Source: a bacterium (lineage in GTDB: Bacteria > Patescibacteriota > Minisyncoccia > Minisyncoccales > JANBVM01). Taken from it: DNA of 33,580 nt. A program made the translations under genes and the position numbers. Below the pieces are notes generated by a model. That model did not search any database. It had not been told where the DNA came from and saw nothing but the letters and a program-made list of their open reading frames with translations. Positions 4,115 to 23,273 of the stretch are shown in pieces; the stretch's first letter is position 1, and every line of letters begins with the position of its first letter. The DNA lies in contig JAUVBU010000001.1 in assembly GCA_030591065.1 (NCBI GenBank), positions 1-33,580 of the forward strand. The letters are read 5' to 3'.

Positions 4115-4330
4115 TTAGATAGTAATATTTAATAAGGCTAAAGCAACAAAGGCTGTGCCCAAAACTACTGTTGCCCAAAAAATCTTTTTTTCTGCACCTC
4201 TTCTTGCTGAGTAAAATTCTCCGCTTCCACCAAAAGCAGAACCCAAAGAACTTCCTCTTTGCTGTAAGAGAATTAAAATCATTAAAGATATAGATACTGT
4301 AATTTGTGAGATAAGTAAAAGGTTGTTCAT
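4115..4330 (-). CDS. secG: preprotein translocase subunit SecG; start taken at the internal Met MNNLLLIS rather than the longest ORF
   Basis: LLILLQQRGSSLGSAFGGSGE...YSARRGAEK is the SecG signature. The longer upstream ORF would overlap the next gene by 112 nt; starting at 4330 gives the usual 4-nt ATGA overlap. Confidence 0.7.
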   Translation of the reverse strand: MNNLLLISQITVSISLMILILLQQRGSSLGSAFGGSGEFYSARRGAEKKIFWATVVLGTAFVALALLNITI

Positions 4331-4704
4331 TTTCTTAATCCTAGAAAAAAGTTTGTTATCCAAACAATAGCTGCTGTGAAGAATAATGGAGTTAATCCCA
4401 ATACTGTAAATTCTTGGAAGAAGACGTCCAAGAGCCAAATAGTTATTAAGTCAAGAATAAAGGGAAACAGGCCTAACGTCAAGAGCCTTAAAGGAAGAGT
4501 TATCCTATTTATTATCGGCCTAACAAAGAAATTAACTATACCCAAAATACCTCCAACTAAAAGTAACGCTTGTATTTCTTGGGCAATTTCTATTCTAAAA
4601 AAAGTTTCTCCTGGGATAACTTCTAAGCTAGCTCCAGGAACAAACCTTCCTGCTAGAAAAATTGATAAAACTCCGGCAACAATGTGCCAAAATAGTCGTT
4701 CCAT
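4327..4704 (-). CDS. PF04020 (DUF360 / phage-holin_4_2-like, YvlD-type) four-helix membrane protein
   Basis: IVNFFVRPIINRITLPLRLLTLGLFPFILDLITIWLL closely parallels B. subtilis YvlD (LVNTFIRPIL..LTLPLTILTLGLFSLVIN). Confidence 0.7.
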   Translation of the reverse strand: MERLFWHIVAGVLSIFLAGRFVPGASLEVIPGETFFRIEIAQEIQALLLVGGILGIVNFFVRPIINRITLPLRLLTLGLFPFILDLITIWLLDVFFQEFTVLGLTPLFFTAAIVWITNFFLGLRK

Positions 4705-4724
4705 AAATGATATATTAATTGAAA

Positions 4725-4753
4725 ACTATACTCTTTGGCCTTTAGAATGTCAA
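4725..4753 (-). promoter_or_regulatory. putative sigma70 promoter (TTGACA-N17-TATAGT on the minus strand) for the PF04020-secG operon
   Basis: The reverse complement reads tTTGACAttctaaaggccaaagagTATAGT about 20 nt upstream of the ATG at 4704. Confidence 0.4.
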
Positions 4754-4797
4754 ACTAAAGAGTTCTTCTTTTCCAAAAGTATAATAGCAAAAAAGGA

Positions 4798-6123
4798 CTA
4801 ACTTAGCAACCCTTTTTTTCTTAACTTTTTATGATAGGTTATAGCAAAACGATGAGACTCGTCCCTTAGCTGTAAAACCAAATCAAATATTTCTCTGGGT
4901 AATTTTTCTAATAAAAGTGGTTCTTTGTAATTCTCAATATATAGCTTGTTATATTTTTTTGCTATACTGGCAATTATTATTTTTTTAGCTACACTATTTT
5001 CTTTTTTTACCAAAAGAGCAGTGTTTAGTTGAGGTTTTCCCCCATCTATTAAAACTAAGCCCGGGAGGGTCCACTCAGGATGTTTTAATCTTCTACTTAA
5101 AACTTCTTTTATCATTGCGGTGTCGTTCGGCTTTCCTGTGATTTTAATTTTAAAACGACGATACAGTTCTTTTTTAGATTTGCCATCAAGAAAGACAACC
5201 ATAGCCCCTGTGGCAAATTTACCGCAAATATTAGAAATATCATAAGCCTCAATTCTAGAAATATTCTTTTTTGTTTTTTATATTTTTTTTAGCTTGCTTT
5301 CAGTTTTTTTCCAACTGGATAAAGTTTTTTGTTTTGTTTTCCTAAAAACATCTTTTGAATCAGTGAACTCAATTTGTCTTTTAATGTTTACTGTCTTAAA
5401 CATTGGTAGGCGAGCGTTTTCTAGGATTTTTTCTAAAGCAAAAAATTGGTCTCTTATTTTCGCAGCTCTTTCAAATTTTTGAGACCTAGACATTATTTTC
5501 ATCTCTCTTTTTAAATTTTTAAGTACTACAGAACCGCTTCCCATTAAAACGGAGATTAATCTTTTAATGTTTTTTTGATATTCTTTTTTGTTTGGGTTTG
5601 GTCCTGGACAAAGATCTAATTGACACCAAGGACACAAAACTTTCGAATGTTTTTTAACGGTATAATAAGGGAAAACCCTTCTGAGTACTTTTAAGGTGCT
5701 TTTAATGGCAGAGCCATCTACAAATGGTCCTATAAATATTGCCTTTTCTTTAGCTTCTTTTGTTTTTGACTGGTGAGTCCAAAATATTTGCGGTAATTCT
5801 GCCTTTGTAATGCCTACGTAAAAATAGTTTTTATTATCTTTCCAAACAATATTGTATTTTGGTCTGTATTTTTTAATTAGATTGGCTTCTAAAATTAAAG
5901 CTTCTATTTCTGAGTTTGTTTCAATATATCCTATAGTTTTTACTTGATCTATAAAAAGATTGTCTCGGTAGTTGTTTTTTTGAAAATGGCTATTTGTTCG
6001 TTTTCTAAGATTAATAGCCTTACCAATATATAAAAAATCTTTATTTTTCTTAAACACATAAACTCCAGGCTTTTGAGGAAACTTAGAGGCGGAGTCTTTT
6101 TTTAAAAGTTTAAATCTTTTCAT
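4798..6123 (-). pseudogene. uvrC: excinuclease ABC subunit C (short form, no HhH2 tail) interrupted by a single in-frame TAA at 5278-5280 (minus-strand codon); the two ORF-track pieces 5278..6123 and 4798..5202 are one reading frame
   Basis: N-terminal piece: GIY-YIG (PGVYVFKK..LYIGKAINLRKR..SH), a Cys-rich segment and the UVR domain (FERAAKIRDQFFALEKI). The frame continues after the TAA as KTKKNISRIEAYDISNICGKFATGAMVVFLDGK, which is the UvrC RIECFDISH / VVF.DG motif, then LIDGGKPQLN and ESHRFAITYHKKLR. Both ORFs are in the same minus-strand frame, checked arithmetically. Confidence 0.65.
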
Positions 6124-16668: not shown

Positions 16669-17778
16669 TTATTTCTGCTTGGACGCAATTTTTAGAAAAA
16701 CCTTTTCATATCCATCTATCATTGCTTCAATGCTAAATTTCTCTTGCACCCTATCTCGACAATCTTTTCTGTTAATTTGATCAATCTTTTTGATTGCTTT
16801 TACCATTCCATTTAAATTTTTTACTATAAAACCTGTTTTTCCATGAGCTATTACTTCGCGAGCTGACCCACGATCAAAGGTGATAACTGGTGTTCCGCAA
16901 GCCATAGCCTCTATAAAGGTTAATCCAAAAGCTTCTTCCCATCGAATTGGGCACAAAAGAGCTTTTGCTTGGTTGTAATATTTATAGGTAAGATTATATG
17001 GGATGTTTCCTACGTATCGAATATCTTTATTTAGGTATGGTTTTATTTTTTTATCCCAATATCTTCCTTCGGCTGGTATTCCGGCAATAAGAAGCTTCTC
17101 TTTCGCCTTTAAACTTGCTTGGACAGCTATATCAACTCCTTTAACTGGAATTATTCTTCCTAGGAATAAAAGAGAATCTTTAGGTTTTTCATTAAACGGA
17201 AAAAGATTTAAGTCAATTCCATTATAAACAGTAGCTGCATAGTTTAGTTTTGGAGCAGGCTTTCTTTGAGCATTAGATATTGATACAAAGTGTTGATTTT
17301 TAGAAGAGAACATCTTGAAAACTTCTGCTCGCCAAGGATAAATAGGGTCATGTACCGTATAAACAACTGGAATTTTTTGAAAAGCTAGAGCAAAGGGCAT
17401 TACCCTGTCGAGGGGGTGAGTATGAAGAATATCAAACTTTTCTTTTATCGCCGTCTTATACATTAAGGAGATAAAGTATTGATCCCACAAAGAGAAAAGT
17501 TTATTGGTTTCGGTTTTAGCATGAGGGCCAGATAAAATCTTTAGATTTTTCTTACCAGAGATTCCGTGAAGGGGTTTTACTTTTCCAGTAATTACTTTGG
17601 TAACTTTTAGTTTAGAACCTTCTGGAGCAAAGAAGTAAACCTCATGACCTCTTTTTTTTAAGCCTTCTGCTACTGCCTTAGCAATAAGCATGGGAGCATA
17701 AATAATTCCTTTTGGTTCGGGAACAGTATAATGACCAGTTATCATCATACCAATTTTCAGTTTCTTTTTTTTAACCAT
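16669..17778 (-). CDS. GT4-family (GT-B fold) glycosyltransferase, paralog 1 of 3
   Basis: EAFGLTFIEAMACGTPVITFDRGSAREVI (E-x7-E donor-binding motif) and the shared C-terminal tail KKIDQINRKDCRDRV..F. Confidence 0.75.
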   Translation of the reverse strand: MVKKKKLKIGMMITGHYTVPEPKGIIYAPMLIAKAVAEGLKKRGHEVYFFAPEGSKLKVTKVITGKVKPLHGISGKKNLKILSGPHAKTETNKLFSLWDQYFISLMYKTAIKEKFDILHTHPLDRVMPFALAFQKIPVVYTVHDPIYPWRAEVFKMFSSKNQHFVSISNAQRKPAPKLNYAATVYNGIDLNLFPFNEKPKDSLLFLGRIIPVKGVDIAVQASLKAKEKLLIAGIPAEGRYWDKKIKPYLNKDIRYVGNIPYNLTYKYYNQAKALLCPIRWEEAFGLTFIEAMACGTPVITFDRGSAREVIAHGKTGFIVKNLNGMVKAIKKIDQINRKDCRDRVQEKFSIEAMIDGYEKVFLKIASKQK

Positions 17779-17779
17779 A

Positions 17780-18868
17780 TTATTTACCAGCTAATTTGTA
17801 ATAGAGTTTTTCGTATTCGTCTGTCATTTTCTGATAAGTGAAATTATCATCTACCCATCTTCGGCAATCACTTCTCTCGATTTGATCAATCTTCTTAATT
17901 GCTTCAACCAACCCTTGAATATTCTTTTTACCATTTTTATCTTCCATAGGAAGAACAAATCCGGTTTTTCCGTCTTTTACAACTTCAGAAACAGAACCTT
18001 TGTCAAAAGCAATAACAGGGGTTCCGCAAGCCATAGACTCGGCCATAATTAATCCAAATGGTTCGTGCCATTCTATTGGATAAAGGCAGGCGATAGCATT
18101 ACCGTAAAAATCAGAAAGCTGATCTTGTGATAATTCTCCTATGTACTTAATTTTATTATTAAGTCGAGGCTTTATCTTTTCTTTAAAGTAACCTTCGCTA
18201 TCTGGATCTAATCTTCCAGCTAAGACTAAATTAATTCCGGTTCTTTCTGCAGCCTCAATAGCATTTTCTATTCCCTTATAAGGGTCAATACGGGCAATCC
18301 ATACAAAATGATTTTTTGGTTTTGGATAGAACTTATATTGAGAAGTATCTATTCCGTTATATACAATAGATTGATGAGGAAACTTTATTGGACAAAGAGA
18401 TCTCTGAGATTTAGATATAAAGCAACCATACATGTCTTTTTTATGAAGCTCAAACATTTTAAGCCTAGTAGGGAATAAGTCTGGATTAGTGATAGAAGAC
18501 AGATAAAGGGGGTTATGAAAAGTATGTAACATAGGAGTTTTAACTAATTCTTGAAAGAATAGTGGCCATAAATCTAAATGAGCGTGTATTACATCAAAAT
18601 CTTTTGCTTGTCTTAAGGCACGAGATATATTTTCTAAATTCCAAAAAGGATCCGTCCAAGGAATATTATCTTTTTTAAGGGCTCTAGGACGAACAGAAAC
18701 AAGCTTAGCTTTTGTTTTAGAATCACCAGAAGCAAATAGTGTTACGTCGTGACCTCTTTTTATTAATTCTTCTGTTAAATAATGCACAACCCTTTCTATT
18801 CCACCGTATTTTTCTGGTGGAACACTAATCCATAATGGTGATATTTGAGCAATTTTGAGTTTTTTCAT
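17780..18868 (-). CDS. GT4-family glycosyltransferase, paralog 2 of 3
   Basis: N-terminal IAQISPLWISVPPEKYGGIERVV...GHDVTLFASGDS; EPFGLIMAESMACGTPVIAFDKGSVSEVV; tail KKIDQIERSDCRRWV. Confidence 0.75.
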   Translation of the reverse strand: MKKLKIAQISPLWISVPPEKYGGIERVVHYLTEELIKRGHDVTLFASGDSKTKAKLVSVRPRALKKDNIPWTDPFWNLENISRALRQAKDFDVIHAHLDLWPLFFQELVKTPMLHTFHNPLYLSSITNPDLFPTRLKMFELHKKDMYGCFISKSQRSLCPIKFPHQSIVYNGIDTSQYKFYPKPKNHFVWIARIDPYKGIENAIEAAERTGINLVLAGRLDPDSEGYFKEKIKPRLNNKIKYIGELSQDQLSDFYGNAIACLYPIEWHEPFGLIMAESMACGTPVIAFDKGSVSEVVKDGKTGFVLPMEDKNGKKNIQGLVEAIKKIDQIERSDCRRWVDDNFTYQKMTDEYEKLYYKLAGK

Positions 18869-18904
18869 CTTTTTTTATTAATTTATTAAGTTTATATTTT
18901 TTTA

Positions 18905-19936
18905 TTAATTATTTTCCGATTTCTTTTTCAATTTTTTGTAAAGTTTTTCGTATCTATTAACCATTCTTTTTAGATTGAAGTTTTTATTAATATGATCTCT
19001 ACAATCTGCCCTAGAAATGGTTTTAATTTTTTTAAGAGCCTGACAAGCTTCTTCGACCGAATTAACTAAAAAGCCAGTTTTACCATCTTTAATTAACTCA
19101 GGCATTGCCCCTTCTTTGTAGGCAATAACCGGAGTGCCACAAGCCATAGCTTCTATAACTACTAACCCAAAAGGTTCCGCTCTTTTTACGGGGAAGATAA
19201 AAGCTTTAGCGTTTTTAACAAGTTCTATTTTCTTTTTAAAGTCTGAGGCGCCTACAAATTGAATTTTTTTACCATCAATTAAAGGTTTAATTCTAAAATT
19301 AAAATATTCTGCATAGGCTGGCAAAATATTTCCAGAGATAATAAGATTTTCTTTACTTAATTTAGCAATATCGATTGCTTCAGCTATTCCTTTTCCAGGA
19401 CAGATTTTAGATAACCAGAGAACATAATCCTTTGGCTTTTCGTTAAAGGGATATCTTTCTAGTGGTAGTCCGTGATAAATTGTTTTGAGAATATTTAATC
19501 CAGGACCAGACCTTCTTTGATTTTCTGAAATAGAAATATAATTTACGTTTGGAAATCTTTTATAGAGAATTCTCGTCTCTTCGTTTAAGGGATGATGGAG
19601 AGTTGTTATTATCGGTGGCTTTAAAAGTTTAGTGTAAGCACTAGTATAAAACTCACAATGATCGTGAATAATGTCAAAATTGTTTTGAAGTGATATTAAT
19701 TTTTCGTAAAGAAGAGCATAAACAGCATGGGGAGCTTTTAACTTTGCTCTCCATAAAGATTTCGGCCAAATAGGAACTAGTTTAGCTGAAGTTTTTGAAT
19801 CTTCTGTGGCAAAAAGAGTGACTTCATGACCCCTTCTAGTTAGTTCGTCGCAAAGCCAAGAAACTACAAGTTCGGTTCCGCCATAGGTATGTGGGGGGAC
19901 AGGAATCCAAAGCGGGGCAATTTGAGCGATACGCAT
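18905..19936 (-). CDS. GT4-family glycosyltransferase, paralog 3 of 3
   Basis: IAQIAPLWIPVPPHTYGGTELVV...GHEVTLFATEDS; EPFGLVVIEAMACGTPVIAYKEGAMPELI; tail KKIKTISRADCRDHI. Confidence 0.75.
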   Translation of the reverse strand: MRIAQIAPLWIPVPPHTYGGTELVVSWLCDELTRRGHEVTLFATEDSKTSAKLVPIWPKSLWRAKLKAPHAVYALLYEKLISLQNNFDIIHDHCEFYTSAYTKLLKPPIITTLHHPLNEETRILYKRFPNVNYISISENQRRSGPGLNILKTIYHGLPLERYPFNEKPKDYVLWLSKICPGKGIAEAIDIAKLSKENLIISGNILPAYAEYFNFRIKPLIDGKKIQFVGASDFKKKIELVKNAKAFIFPVKRAEPFGLVVIEAMACGTPVIAYKEGAMPELIKDGKTGFLVNSVEEACQALKKIKTISRADCRDHINKNFNLKRMVNRYEKLYKKLKKKSENN

Positions 19937-20095: not shown

Positions 20096-21817
20096 ATGTT
20101 AAATTCTCCTATCGAAGAAATAAAAGAAAAACTTGATATTATTGAAGTACTTGGAGGTTATATCAAGTTAAAAAAAGCTGGAGTGAACTACAAAGCTGTT
20201 TGTCCCTTTCATTCTGAAAAAACTCCTTCTTTTTTTGTTTCTCCTGCCAGACAAATTTGGCATTGTTTTGGTTGTGGTGCTGGTCATAGTATTTTTGATT
20301 TTGTTATGAAAATAGAGGGAGTAGAATTTGCAGATGCTTTACGTATATTAGCTCAAAAAGCTGGAGTAGAATTAAAGCCAATAAAGCCTGAACTGAAAAC
20401 AAAGCGGCAAAGATTGTACGAAGTTTCTGAGTTAGCAGCTAAATTTTTTGAAAAACAACTTGGTAATAGTCTTAATGGAAAAAAAGCAAAGAAGTATTTA
20501 TTAGAAAGAAAACTGAGTGAAAATACAATTAAAGAGTGGAGGCTTGGGTGGGCTCCTGATGCTTGGCATGGATTATCTAATTTTTTAATTTCTCAAAAAT
20601 ACAACGGAAGTGAAGTAGAGCAGGTTGGGCTTGCTGTAAAAACAAAGCAAGGAAAGTATGGTGATCGTTTCCGAGGAAGAGTGATGTTTCCTGTTTTTGA
20701 TTTTAATTCAAACGTTATTGGTTATGGAGGAAGAGTTCTTAAAAAAACTAAAGATACGGCAAAGTACCTTAACACCCCAAATACTTTTTTATATGATAAG
20801 GGAAAAACTTTGTACGGACTAGATAGGGCTAGGATAGAAATAAGGAAAAAAGATTTTTGTATCTTAGTAGAGGGATATGTGGATGTTATAATATCTCATC
20901 AGTCTGGCATTAAAAACGTGGTAGCTACTTCCGGGACAGCTTTAACCTTAAATCATTTAAATATATTAAAAAGATATTCTAATAATTTATTTTTAGCCTT
21001 TGATATGGATTTTGCGGGAGATACTGCTACCAAGAGAGGAATAGATTTGGCCCGCGCTAAAGGATTTAATTTAAAAGTTGTAAAGTTGCCGGAGGGAAAA
21101 GACCCAGATAATGTTATTTCAGAGAACCCAGAAGATTTTAAAAAAATGGTTAACAAAGCTCTTTCTATTGTAGAATTTTATTTTCAAGATGCCTTATCTA
21201 GGTTTGATAAAAAAACCCCAGAAGGCAAAAGAGAAATATCAAAACTATTATTACCTGTAATCAAAAAAGTTTCGAGCCGGATAGAGCAGTCTTCTTGGGT
21301 TCAAAGATTAGCCAAAGAACTTATGGTAAAAGAAGAATATATTGAAGAAGAATTAAAGAAAATAAAAAACAGTAAATCTTTTAAGGATGAGGCTGTTACT
21401 AAAACACAAACCTCAATACCGCAAAAAACAAGAAAAGATCTTTTAGAGGAGAGCTTAATATCTTTACTTCTTAAAAATCCTAAAAATTTTGAGTTGGTTG
21501 ATAAAGAGCTTTTGACTTGTTTTTCGTCAAAATCTCAAGAAGCTTTAAATCATCTTGCTGACAGAAAAAACATTTCTCCAGAACTAAATAGTTTTTTTGC
21601 TTATCTTGGAATAAAAGCAGATCTTGAAAAAATTGAAGAGGAAGAAATTGTTCCCGAAATAAAATTTTGCCTAAAAGGGATAGAATCTCTTGATATAAAA
21701 AACGAAATGGATCAGATTTCTCTTCAAATTAAGGGAGCAGAAGCAGAAAAAAACTTTGAAAAAGTAAAAAGTCTTACTGAGCAATTTAATGCTTTATCTA
21801 AAAAAATTAATCAATAA
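20096..21817 (+). CDS. dnaG: DNA primase
   Basis: CHC2 zinc finger (CPFHSEKTPSF...CFGCG), TOPRIM region (ILVEGYVDVI) and a C-terminal DnaB-interaction region; 573 aa. Only 9 nt separate it from rpoD, the conserved dnaG-rpoD arrangement. Confidence 0.9.
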   Translation: MLNSPIEEIKEKLDIIEVLGGYIKLKKAGVNYKAVCPFHSEKTPSFFVSPARQIWHCFGCGAGHSIFDFVMKIEGVEFADALRILAQKAGVELKPIKPELKTKRQRLYEVSELAAKFFEKQLGNSLNGKKAKKYLLERKLSENTIKEWRLGWAPDAWHGLSNFLISQKYNGSEVEQVGLAVKTKQGKYGDRFRGRVMFPVFDFNSNVIGYGGRVLKKTKDTAKYLNTPNTFLYDKGKTLYGLDRARIEIRKKDFCILVEGYVDVIISHQSGIKNVVATSGTALTLNHLNILKRYSNNLFLAFDMDFAGDTATKRGIDLARAKGFNLKVVKLPEGKDPDNVISENPEDFKKMVNKALSIVEFYFQDALSRFDKKTPEGKREISKLLLPVIKKVSSRIEQSSWVQRLAKELMVKEEYIEEELKKIKNSKSFKDEAVTKTQTSIPQKTRKDLLEESLISLLLKNPKNFELVDKELLTCFSSKSQEALNHLADRKNISPELNSFFAYLGIKADLEKIEEEEIVPEIKFCLKGIESLDIKNEMDQISLQIKGAEAEKNFEKVKSLTEQFNALSKKINQ

Positions 21818-21826
21818 CTAGTTTTT

Positions 21827-23164
21827 ATGAAAAAGAAAGAAAAAAAAGGAACGACTATATCTAAAAAAAATAAAGTTCGTTCAGTAAAGTTAACTAGTAA
21901 AAAAAAGATTGTAAAAAAATCACAACCTAAAAAACTTGGAGTTAAAAAAGTAAAAAAGGTAAAAAAGAACACTATAAAGAAAAAAGTTTCCGTAAAAAAG
22001 AAGAAAATCGTAACGAAGAAAAAGATTTCGGTAAAGAAAAAAATTGTAACGAAGAAAAAAATTACCACTAAAGCCAAAAAGAAAAAAAGAGTGGTCCGCA
22101 GGGGTAGATTTAAAAAAGTTTTCACAGAAGAAAAGGTTGAAAAAGTTATTGAAAAAGCTTCTAAAAGGGGATTTATTACTGTGTCAGAAATCTTATATAC
22201 TTTTCCTGATCCAGAAAAAGATATTAGTGGTTTAGAAGATTTCTATGAAGAATTAGACAAAAAAGGAATTGAGCTTAAAGATGTTGTAGACTTTTTAACA
22301 ACAGAAAAAAAGAAGAAAACAAAACTTCTTGGAAAAAAGATTGATCCGGTTCAAATGTATTTAAAGGAAATTGGAAGAGTTTCTTTTTTAACGGCTCAAG
22401 AAGAAAAAGAGCTTTCAAAGAAAATTGAAAAAGGGGACAAAGAAGCAAAAAAGACACTAGCTAGAGCAAACTTACGATTAGTGGTTTCTATAGCTAAAAA
22501 ATACATTGGAAGATCTCCCAACCTAACTATCCTTGATTTAATTCAAGAAGGAAATCTGGGACTATTTAGAGCGGTTGAAAAATTTGACTGGAGAAGAGGT
22601 TATAAGTTTTCTACCTATGCTACTTGGTGGATAAGACAGTCAATCAGTAGGGCTTTAGCAGATCAAGCTAGAACAATCAGAATACCGGTACACATGATAG
22701 AAACTCTTTCGAAATTTAATAAAACAAAAAGAAATCTTTTGAAGAGTTTGGGTAGGGATCCTCTCCCAGAAGAAATTGCAGCAGAAATGGGACTGCTTGT
22801 AGAAAAAGTTCATCATCTAATGAAAATTTCTCAAAGAACAGTTTCTTTAGAAACTCCTGTTGGGGGAGATGATGACGATTCTGTTTTAGCTGAGTTTATT
22901 AAGGACAAGAAGACAGCTTCTCCATCTTCTGACGCAGCCAGAGCTTTATTAAGGGAAAGATTAGGAACAATTCTAATAGATTTAACTCCCAGAGAGCAAA
23001 AGGTTCTTTCTATGAGATTTGGTTTAAAGGATGGAGTTACCCACACACTAGAAGAAGTTGGTAAGGTTTTTGGAGTAACAAGGGAAAGGATTCGTCAAAT
23101 CGAAGCTAAGGCTTTAGAGAAAATTCGTCAGCACAAATCTTTGAAAAAACTGAAGGGGTATTGA
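21827..23164 (+). CDS. rpoD: primary sigma-70 factor RpoD with a ~100-aa lysine-rich low-complexity N-terminal extension
   Basis: Regions 1.2 through 4 are recognisable ([11 protein letters not shown]; [31 protein letters not shown]; [17 protein letters not shown]). The first ~100 residues are a K-rich stretch including the tandem [12 protein letters not shown] repeat. TGA stop. Confidence 0.9.
22001..22073 (+). repeat. tandem ~36-bp coding repeat (2 copies) encoding [10 protein letters not shown](S/T)(V/T) inside the rpoD 5' region
   Basis: aagaaaatcgtaacgaagaaaaagatttcggtaaag followed by aaaaaaattgtaacgaagaaaaaaattaccactaaag. The antisense F-rich ORF 21811..22125 is an artefact of this region. 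Confidence 0.7.
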
Positions 23165-23198: not shown

Positions 23199-23273
23199 TC
23201 CGGCGTGGCGCAATGGTAGCGCGGGTGCCTGTTAAGCACTAGGTTGTGGGTTCGAATCCTACCGCCGGAGCCA
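23199..23273 (+). tRNA. tRNA-Asn, anticodon GTT, with genomically encoded 3' CCA
   Basis: Acceptor TCCGGCG/CGCCGGA, D-arm GCGC-AATGGTA-GCGC, anticodon stem GGTGC/GCACT with loop CTGTTAA, T-arm GTGGG-TTCGAAT-CCTAC, discriminator G, then CCA. Confidence 0.85.

Follow-up and report, generated by a model that had tools for sequence, protein, structure and literature searches.

The rpoD/sigA-type gene in the DNA stretch analyzed here (contig JAUVBU010000001.1; 33,580 nt with a guanine plus cytosine (GC) content of 32%; hereafter the window, to which all positions refer) encodes a protein that, as judged from its sequence, is an RpoD/SigA-type group 1 sigma factor of a bacterium of the Patescibacteria (candidate phyla radiation, CPR), presumably with a housekeeping role. 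This sigma factor begins with a strongly basic tail of 97 amino acids (aa), with a net charge of +49, which is predicted to be disordered and precedes a retained, folded and acidic region 1.1. Comparison of homologs indicates that the tail is a widespread lineage trait of Patescibacteria, with its charge conserved across most of the phylum. The role that we favor, with modest confidence and by analogy with other lysine-rich proteins, is that of a non-sequence-specific electrostatic tether that would bind the backbone or the minor groove of DNA.

A basic tail ahead of a retained region 1.1

The following elements of the gene were delineated:

21827..23164, plus strand: rpoD/sigA-type sigma factor gene, 445 aa (Pfam regions 1.1, 1.2, 2, 3 and 4)
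21827..22117, plus strand: polycationic N-terminal tail, aa 1-97, predicted to be disordered (composition, predicted local distance difference test (pLDDT) scores and homolog comparison)
21943..21967, plus strand: 9-bp tandem repeat encoding (V)KK units (Tandem Repeats Finder: 2.9 copies, 94% matches)
21977..22063, plus strand: 36-bp tandem duplication with an 18-bp sub-period (Tandem Repeats Finder: 2.3 copies, 82% matches, score 112)
22097..22117, plus strand: junction motif RRGRFKK, aa 91-97 (homolog consensus RGRxKKVF)
22118..22306, plus strand: region 1.1 domain, aa 98-160, net charge -8 (PF03979, SigA alignment, AlphaFold)
22307..22342, plus strand: basic linker between regions 1.1 and 1.2, aa 161-172, net charge +7 (composition)
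22343..23131, plus strand: region 1.2 (aa 173-206), region 2 (aa 211-283), region 3 (aa 292-367) and region 4 (aa 385-435) (Pfam)

The tail contains 45 lysines, 5 arginines, a single glutamate and no aspartate, and 81% of its residues are K, V, I, T or S. Compared to the background of all proteins encoded in the window (11.8% K and 12.1% D+E), both the excess of lysine (P = 3e-17 for at least 45 of 97 residues) and the shortage of acidic residues (P = 5e-5 for no more than one) are far beyond chance. The densest 30-aa stretch of the protein consists of K and R to 57%, the respective value for every other open reading frame (ORF) of the window being 43% or less. An initial reading of this DNA without database searches (hereafter the sequence-only reading) had pointed to a lysine-rich N-terminal extension of about 100 residues, and this extension is recovered here as aa 1-97. 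The same reading described an almost pure K/V/I/T/S stretch of that length before region 1.2; the composition stands for aa 1-97, but 172 residues, not about 100, precede region 1.2.

The directly repeated 12-aa unit that had been noticed within the tail, together with the tandem repeat of about 36 bp that encodes it, is found as well: the units begin at aa 58 and aa 70 (nt 21998 and 22034), the pair spans aa 58-81 (nt 21998-22069), and Tandem Repeats Finder reports a period of 36. At the DNA level, 29 of 36 positions are identical at a lag of 36, a value that was equalled in only 1 of 2000 codon shuffles, whereas at the protein level the identity of 10/12 was equalled in 166 of 5000 shuffles and is modestly unusual for a segment of such simple composition. 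The longest A-run in the tail is 8 nt, and the enrichment of AAG over AAA, which would break up poly-A, is not significant (32:13 vs 812:220, p = 0.27). No Pfam family, including linker histones and Hc1, matches aa 1-97 at E <= 0.1, and the likeness of the tail to histone H1 is compositional only.

The sequence-only reading placed the lysine-rich tail at the site that region 1.1 normally occupies. This is refuted by the finding that aa 98-160 comprise a retained, folded region 1.1. The PF03979 profile matches aa 101-155 with 30.6 bits (cutoff 22.5), and aa 98-444 align with residues 16-365 of Staphylococcus aureus SigA and aa 102-444 with residues 15-368 of Bacillus subtilis SigA. In an AlphaFold2 model built with a 44-sequence alignment, residues 101-157 form a confident helical domain (pLDDT 84-87) with helices at 101-114, 119-125, 133-146 and 153-157. 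Group 1 sigma factors alone possess region 1.1, and the Pfam match, the SigA alignment and the folded model all show it in the query. In the same model, residues 1 to ~95 have pLDDT values of 40-47 and lack secondary structure, residues 158-169 of the linker are of low confidence, and the sigma core is confident; the tail is accordingly predicted to be an intrinsically disordered addition ahead of the folded region 1.1.

Distribution of the tail and inversion of N-terminal charge

Two sets of sigma factors were compared, namely the close homologs (the best 120, of which 118 were alignable) and a mixed species sample obtained by a scan of GTDB species representatives, which includes 54 non-CPR sigma factors, mostly from Bacillota. 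The boundaries of the N-terminal segments were anchored by BLAST coordinates. A K/R-rich tail of 30-98 aa, with a net charge between +18 and +59 (median +37), is present in all 118 alignable close homologs, and tails with a net charge of at least +17 were detected in 13 of the 15 species representatives named as CPR. The CPR-named records come from Moraniibacteriota, Yanofskybacteria, Saccharibacteria (eight records), Falkowbacteria, Paceibacterota (two), Kaiserbacteria and one 'Patescibacteria group' lineage. Four tailed loci that are not named as CPR in their records (L005, L014, L015 and L021) were left out of this count to avoid circularity. Among the 54 non-CPR sigma factors, none has a CPR-type tail, the segment ahead of region 1.1 being short (median 12 aa) and carrying net charges from -9 to +8. 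The comparison of related rpoD N-termini hence does not bear out a peculiarity of one gene and instead shows that the tail is common across Patescibacteria.

The net charge of the entire part of the protein before region 1.2 is +48 in the query, with medians of +35 in the 118 close homologs and +20 in 17 CPR loci, compared to a median of -17 (range -29 to -7) in the 54 non-CPR sigma factors. The query thus lacks the strong net negative charge before region 1.2 that defines the canonical polyanionic N-terminus, and the inverted charge of the sigma N-terminus that the sequence-only reading had proposed holds up against this sample. The region 1.1 domain itself stays acidic in the CPR species loci (-11 to -4). 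The linker between regions 1.1 and 1.2 differs in the same direction as the tail; its median net charge is -7.5 for the 54 non-CPR sigma factors, as against +3 for the 118 close homologs. The shift of the whole N-terminal part, from about -17 in a typical sigma factor to +48 in the query, therefore results from the basic tail plus the basic linker, with region 1.1 still acidic.

The junction between the tail and region 1.1 carries a conserved motif. Directly ahead of helix 1 of region 1.1, the homologs share the consensus RGRxKKVF, with a nearly invariant phenylalanine that corresponds to F99. An AT-hook-like core, RGRP or GRPKK, is found at this junction in 63 of the 118 homologs, its counterpart in the query and the clade nearest to it is GR[F/Y]KK, and the AT-hook-like motif is absent from the Saccharibacteria homologs examined.

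Several additional observations were made in the course of this comparison. In the clade of the query, the linker between regions 1.1 and 1.2 consists of 11-20 aa with a charge of 0 to +8, a second charge reversal that is separate from the tail. One of the tailed loci left out of the count (L021, CAZMYU010000013.1) bears the title 'uncultured Gammaproteobacteria bacterium', a taxonomic label that is probably wrong; it encodes a sigma factor that shares 55% identity with the query and carries a K-rich tail of the CPR type (+21). The SigA proteins of some Clostridia (L026, L067, L079, L053 and L072) have N-terminal extensions of 47-116 aa, which are of mixed, K/E-rich composition and, in contrast to the tails of CPR, almost neutral, with charges of +3 to +7.

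Possible function of the tail

Region 1.1 sits in the DNA channel of the holoenzyme, which is positively charged, and is displaced from it when the open complex forms. A tail with a charge of +49 could not occupy the same channel and would project into solvent, where it would contact the DNA backbone or the minor groove non-specifically. Non-specific binding of nucleic acid, which the sequence-only reading had expected of the tail, is thus a role that analogy makes plausible. Such a tether might hold the sigma factor or the holoenzyme on the AT-rich nucleoid, raising nucleoid occupancy, might aid promoter search, and might stabilize promoter complexes after region 1.1 exits the DNA channel. 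It would then act like the lysine repeats of actinobacterial TopA, HupS or HrdB, or like the tail of histone H1. If the tail does bind DNA, the finding bears on the way RNA polymerase locates promoters and stays on them in very small, regulator-poor cells, on the evolution of disordered polycationic tails under selection for charge alone, and on the repeated appearance of lysine repeats among primary sigma factors from unrelated phyla.

A more far-reaching version of the tether, which we regard as a speculation with a rather low probability, is that the CPR sigma factor, whether free or within the holoenzyme, is constitutively DNA-bound, nucleoid-resident and partly architectural, with the tail capturing downstream or upstream DNA and helping to expel region 1.1 from the channel of RNA polymerase. 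If this were the case, a DNA-resident sigma factor would offset the sparse transcription factors and nucleoid proteins of reduced genomes, and would amount to a phylum-wide alternative mode of bacterial promoter engagement that reverses the classical logic of region 1.1.

Several considerations weigh against a DNA tether. The proposed role is drawn from charge and from analogy, and the N-terminus of the protein is the one predicted from the sequence. Polycations also bind RNA, polyphosphate and acidic proteins, and the adjacent acidic region 1.1 could be the intramolecular partner of the tail. The two remaining CPR-named species representatives have only a short tail (L024, +5) or practically none (L047, +1), so the tail is not indispensable. 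Furthermore, having RGRF in place of RGRP, the query fails the canonical definition of an AT-hook.

One alternative, which we consider unlikely, is that the tail is functional but has a ligand other than duplex DNA, that is, RNA (a nascent transcript or rRNA), polyphosphate, an acidic protein, or region 1.1 onto which it would fold back. In the fold-back form, the tail would be an intramolecular switch that tunes autoinhibition or the assembly of sigma with the core enzyme. The evidence of charge conservation speaks for another ligand in the same way as it does for a DNA tether, the tail directly adjoins the acidic region 1.1 (net -8), and lysine-rich tracts figure in at least part of a paper on polyphosphate-binding proteins of Escherichia coli (PMC12345225). 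However, no partner can be identified from the sequence, the bacterial lysine repeats on record occur preferentially in DNA-binding proteins (PMC5714199), and a charge of +49 is far above what would be needed to neutralize a domain with a charge of -8. On balance, the DNA tether remains the reading that we prefer.

Evolution of the tail: changing length, conserved charge

The tail evolves in a manner distinct from the rest of the protein. The sigma core is 66-77% identical among homologs, whereas the tails align poorly. Between the query and a 91%-identical relative (P0001, encoded on contig L001), 17 of the 23 substitutions and the sole indel fall within the first 100 residues. This indel of 21 nt is in frame, corresponds to KKKKIVT and is located inside the 36-bp repeat. 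Another pair, P0006 and P0008, is identical except for one 9-aa repeat unit, and in all pairs of close homologs examined, every indel is inside the tail. The suggestion of the sequence-only reading that the repeat is a hotspot of length variation is borne out by these comparisons. The clustering of substitutions and indels in the tail points to fast evolution by in-frame slippage with the charge held. Across CPR loci with GC content from 31% to 54%, K+R make up 31-51% of the tail and D and E are nearly absent; with rising GC content, R partly replaces K, and A and P replace V, I and T (Spearman 0.62, p = 0.006). By these sequence comparisons, the tail is kept for its charge rather than for its sequence, and its length changes by in-frame slippage of short lysine-rich units.

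The same repeats are what one would expect if the tail were a tolerated low-complexity expansion without a specific function, one that arose when A-rich codons of an AT-rich genome slipped during replication. In addition to the tandem 9-, 18- and 36-bp repeats, the rapid indels and poor sequence conservation of the tail, the low GC content of the window (32%), the already high lysine content of its proteome (11.8%) and the existence of some Patescibacteria without a tail all fit such an origin. Yet tails with the same K+R fraction are found in loci with up to 54% GC, acidic residues are nearly excluded (P = 5e-5) even though K to E is a single transition, no comparable tract occurs in other ORFs of the window, and the sampled sigma factors of AT-rich Bacillota are tailless. 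Given that the tail changes rapidly while its charge is held, a purely neutral expansion is disfavored, and we consider it quite improbable.

Phase variation was also considered as a role for the repeats and rejected because every repeat unit has a length divisible by 3 and none of the observed indels shifts the frame. A search of JGI metagenome contigs for repeat-length variants (AAAGTTTCCGTAAAAAAG N{75,105} AGGGGTAG) matched only the known relative contig. For practical purposes, the repeat is an in-frame length-variable locus.

Translation of the tail

The basic tail is almost certainly translated. The stop codon of dnaG, TAA at 21815-21817, is in frame with rpoD and precedes its ATG by 3 codons. 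Between codon 1 and codon 177, rpoD has no further ATG in frame, and the only other in-frame starts within the first 175 codons are GTG89 and GTG119, of which the latter is inside region 1.1. The 91%-identical relative has the same ATG preceded by the same sequence as the query, and its codon at the place of GTG89 is ATA. Of 120 homologs, 91 have a tail free of internal methionine, ~135 homologs have a predicted or reconstructed ORF that opens with a K/R-rich tail, and the other two plus-strand frames are closed. An upstream in-frame stop or a later start had been named as the outcomes that would leave the tail untranslated; the position of the TAA, the lack of an internal ATG and the non-conserved GTG89 speak for translation.

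That the true start is downstream or that the duplication is an assembly artefact, as could be suspected because gene callers favor the longest ORF and because the exact 445-aa protein has no record in the public gene index, appears extremely unlikely in view of the start codons and homologous ORFs described above, of indels that are multiples of 3, of the assembly of the nearest relative's form on 4 contigs, which stem from two JGI and two ENA samples, and of the length of the duplication, which at 36 bp is far shorter than a sequencing read.

Nearly all of the ~27 ORFs in the window are missing a Shine-Dalgarno motif within 25 nt upstream, which suggests that translation initiation in this genome is independent of Shine-Dalgarno pairing. 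Because almost every ORF of the window shares this feature, the lack of such a motif before rpoD says nothing against its start. A Phe-rich ORF of 104 aa that is antisense to the tail (21811..22125, minus strand) was rejected as a gene: it mirrors the lysine codons (AAA/AAG as TTT/CTT), and 6 of the 12 homologous loci compared do not keep its frame open.

Identity of the sigma factor and gene neighborhood

The assignment of the gene to the RpoD type in the sequence-only reading is supported by the presence of regions 1.1, 1.2, 2, 3 and 4 and by the adjacent dnaG gene:

20096..21817, plus strand: dnaG (DNA primase), Pfam Zn_ribbon_DnaG, DNAG_N, Toprim and DnaB_bind, TAA stop at 21815-21817

The end of dnaG is separated from the rpoD ATG by 9 nt, in the same frame, and the dnaG-rpoD gene order is also found on contigs L001 and L002. 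Regions 1.2, 2, 3 and 4 were identified by Pfam with scores of 56.3 (PF00140), 74.6 (PF04542), 66.3 (PF04539) and 60.9 (PF04545) bits, respectively, all above the cutoff, and regions 1.2 to 4 contain no large non-conserved insertion. The best relatives with solved structures are the SigA proteins of S. aureus (E = 7.9e-114) and B. subtilis (E = 1.1e-109) (PDB 8x6f and 7ckq, respectively), and the best NCBIfam model is NF006666, the Firmicute-type RpoD, which spans aa 98-445. The curated cutoffs for RpoD equivalogs in NCBIfam are not reached (443.7 vs 572 for NF006666 and 337.1 vs 354 for TIGR02393), which probably reflects the divergence of the phylum; the tail can be only a partial reason for these scores, since the conserved core has diverged as well. 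The sub-cutoff scores agree with the generic label 'sigma-70 family' under which NCBI lists the homologs. The closest named database homologs come from Candidatus Nealsonbacteria, Pacebacteria or 'Patescibacteria group', and the bacterium itself is probably similar to Nealsonbacteria.

Downstream of rpoD, 35 nt past the stop codon, there is a tRNA-Asn(GTT) gene (23199-23273), and upstream of dnaG, three consecutive genes of GT4-family glycosyltransferases occupy 16669-19936 on the minus strand. Elsewhere in the window, uvrC is apparently split (minus strand, 4798-6123) into an ORF of 281 aa with GIY-YIG and UVR motifs (5278..6123) and an ORF of 134 aa with the UvrC RNase H endonuclease domain (4798..5202), with a gap of 75 nt between the two. 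A helix-hairpin-helix C-terminus was not seen, and positions 4115-4800 hold only small overlapping ORFs. The gene may have suffered a frameshift, may be a pseudogene or may be truly split.

Comparison with known systems

The closest well-characterized counterparts of the query are the SigA proteins of Firmicutes, with which aa 98-445 align end to end over regions 1.1 to 4; the query gene is arranged in the dnaG-rpoD order as well. The difference lies at the N-terminus: in Firmicute SigA, region 1.1 is preceded by only ~12-15 neutral residues and followed by an acidic linker, whereas the query has a 97-aa tail with a charge of +49 and a basic linker. It is textbook knowledge that region 1.1 of primary sigma factors is an acidic DNA mimic with an autoinhibitory role, the canonical model being that of E. 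coli sigma70. Like that region, the domain of the query is folded, helical and net negative; unlike it, the domain is only mildly acidic (-8) and is flanked by basic segments on both sides, so the N-terminus as a whole cannot be a polyanionic DNA mimic. A large and little-studied radiation of bacteria keeps a folded region 1.1 and yet adds some 50 net positive charges around it.

A long disordered N-terminal extension is also present in another primary sigma factor, SigA of Mycobacterium tuberculosis, which has a basic N-terminal stretch. The extension of this protein is missing from all structures, and its disordered N-terminus is functionally important, the critical segment being 132-179, with regulation by phosphorylation (PMC10011835); the tail of the query shows no sequence similarity to it. 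In a different arrangement, the AT-hook is contributed in trans by WhiB7, which docks on region 4 of the sigma factor (PMC3905903), whereas the putative AT-hook-like element found in 63 of the 118 homologs is physically attached to the sigma factor. In the portion consulted of a cross-phylum promoter study that includes a CPR species (PMC12641261), the tail is unmentioned, and the term 'N-terminal' is absent from the entire text of that study. Full-text searches of the literature found no description of the tail in CPR/Patescibacteria.

The most pertinent precedent is provided by the lysine repeats of actinobacterial proteins. In HrdB, these repeats follow region 1.1 and precede region 1.2 instead of opening the protein, and we know of no sigma factor for which a function of its lysine repeats has been shown. 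Lysine repeats stabilize the complex of TopA with DNA, and their over-representation among DNA-binding proteins extends to HrdB and B. pertussis RpoD (PMC5714199). The tail of the query resembles the repeats of the TopA C-terminal domain, HupS/HupB, HrdB and B. pertussis RpoD in that it consists of short tandem lysine-rich units within a disordered segment. It differs from them in its spacer residues, which are V, I, T and S rather than the A, P and T of the actinobacterial repeats, and in its genomic setting: the described repeats are tied to GC-rich genomes, whereas the window has 32% GC and the tails occur in loci with 31-54% GC (PMC5714199 for the described repeats). Lysine repeats in a primary sigma factor are thus already known from Streptomyces HrdB and from B. 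pertussis RpoD (PMC5714199). What sets CPR apart is the position of the tail at the extreme N-terminus before a retained region 1.1, its occurrence in AT-rich genomes, and the span of the trait across most of a phylum.

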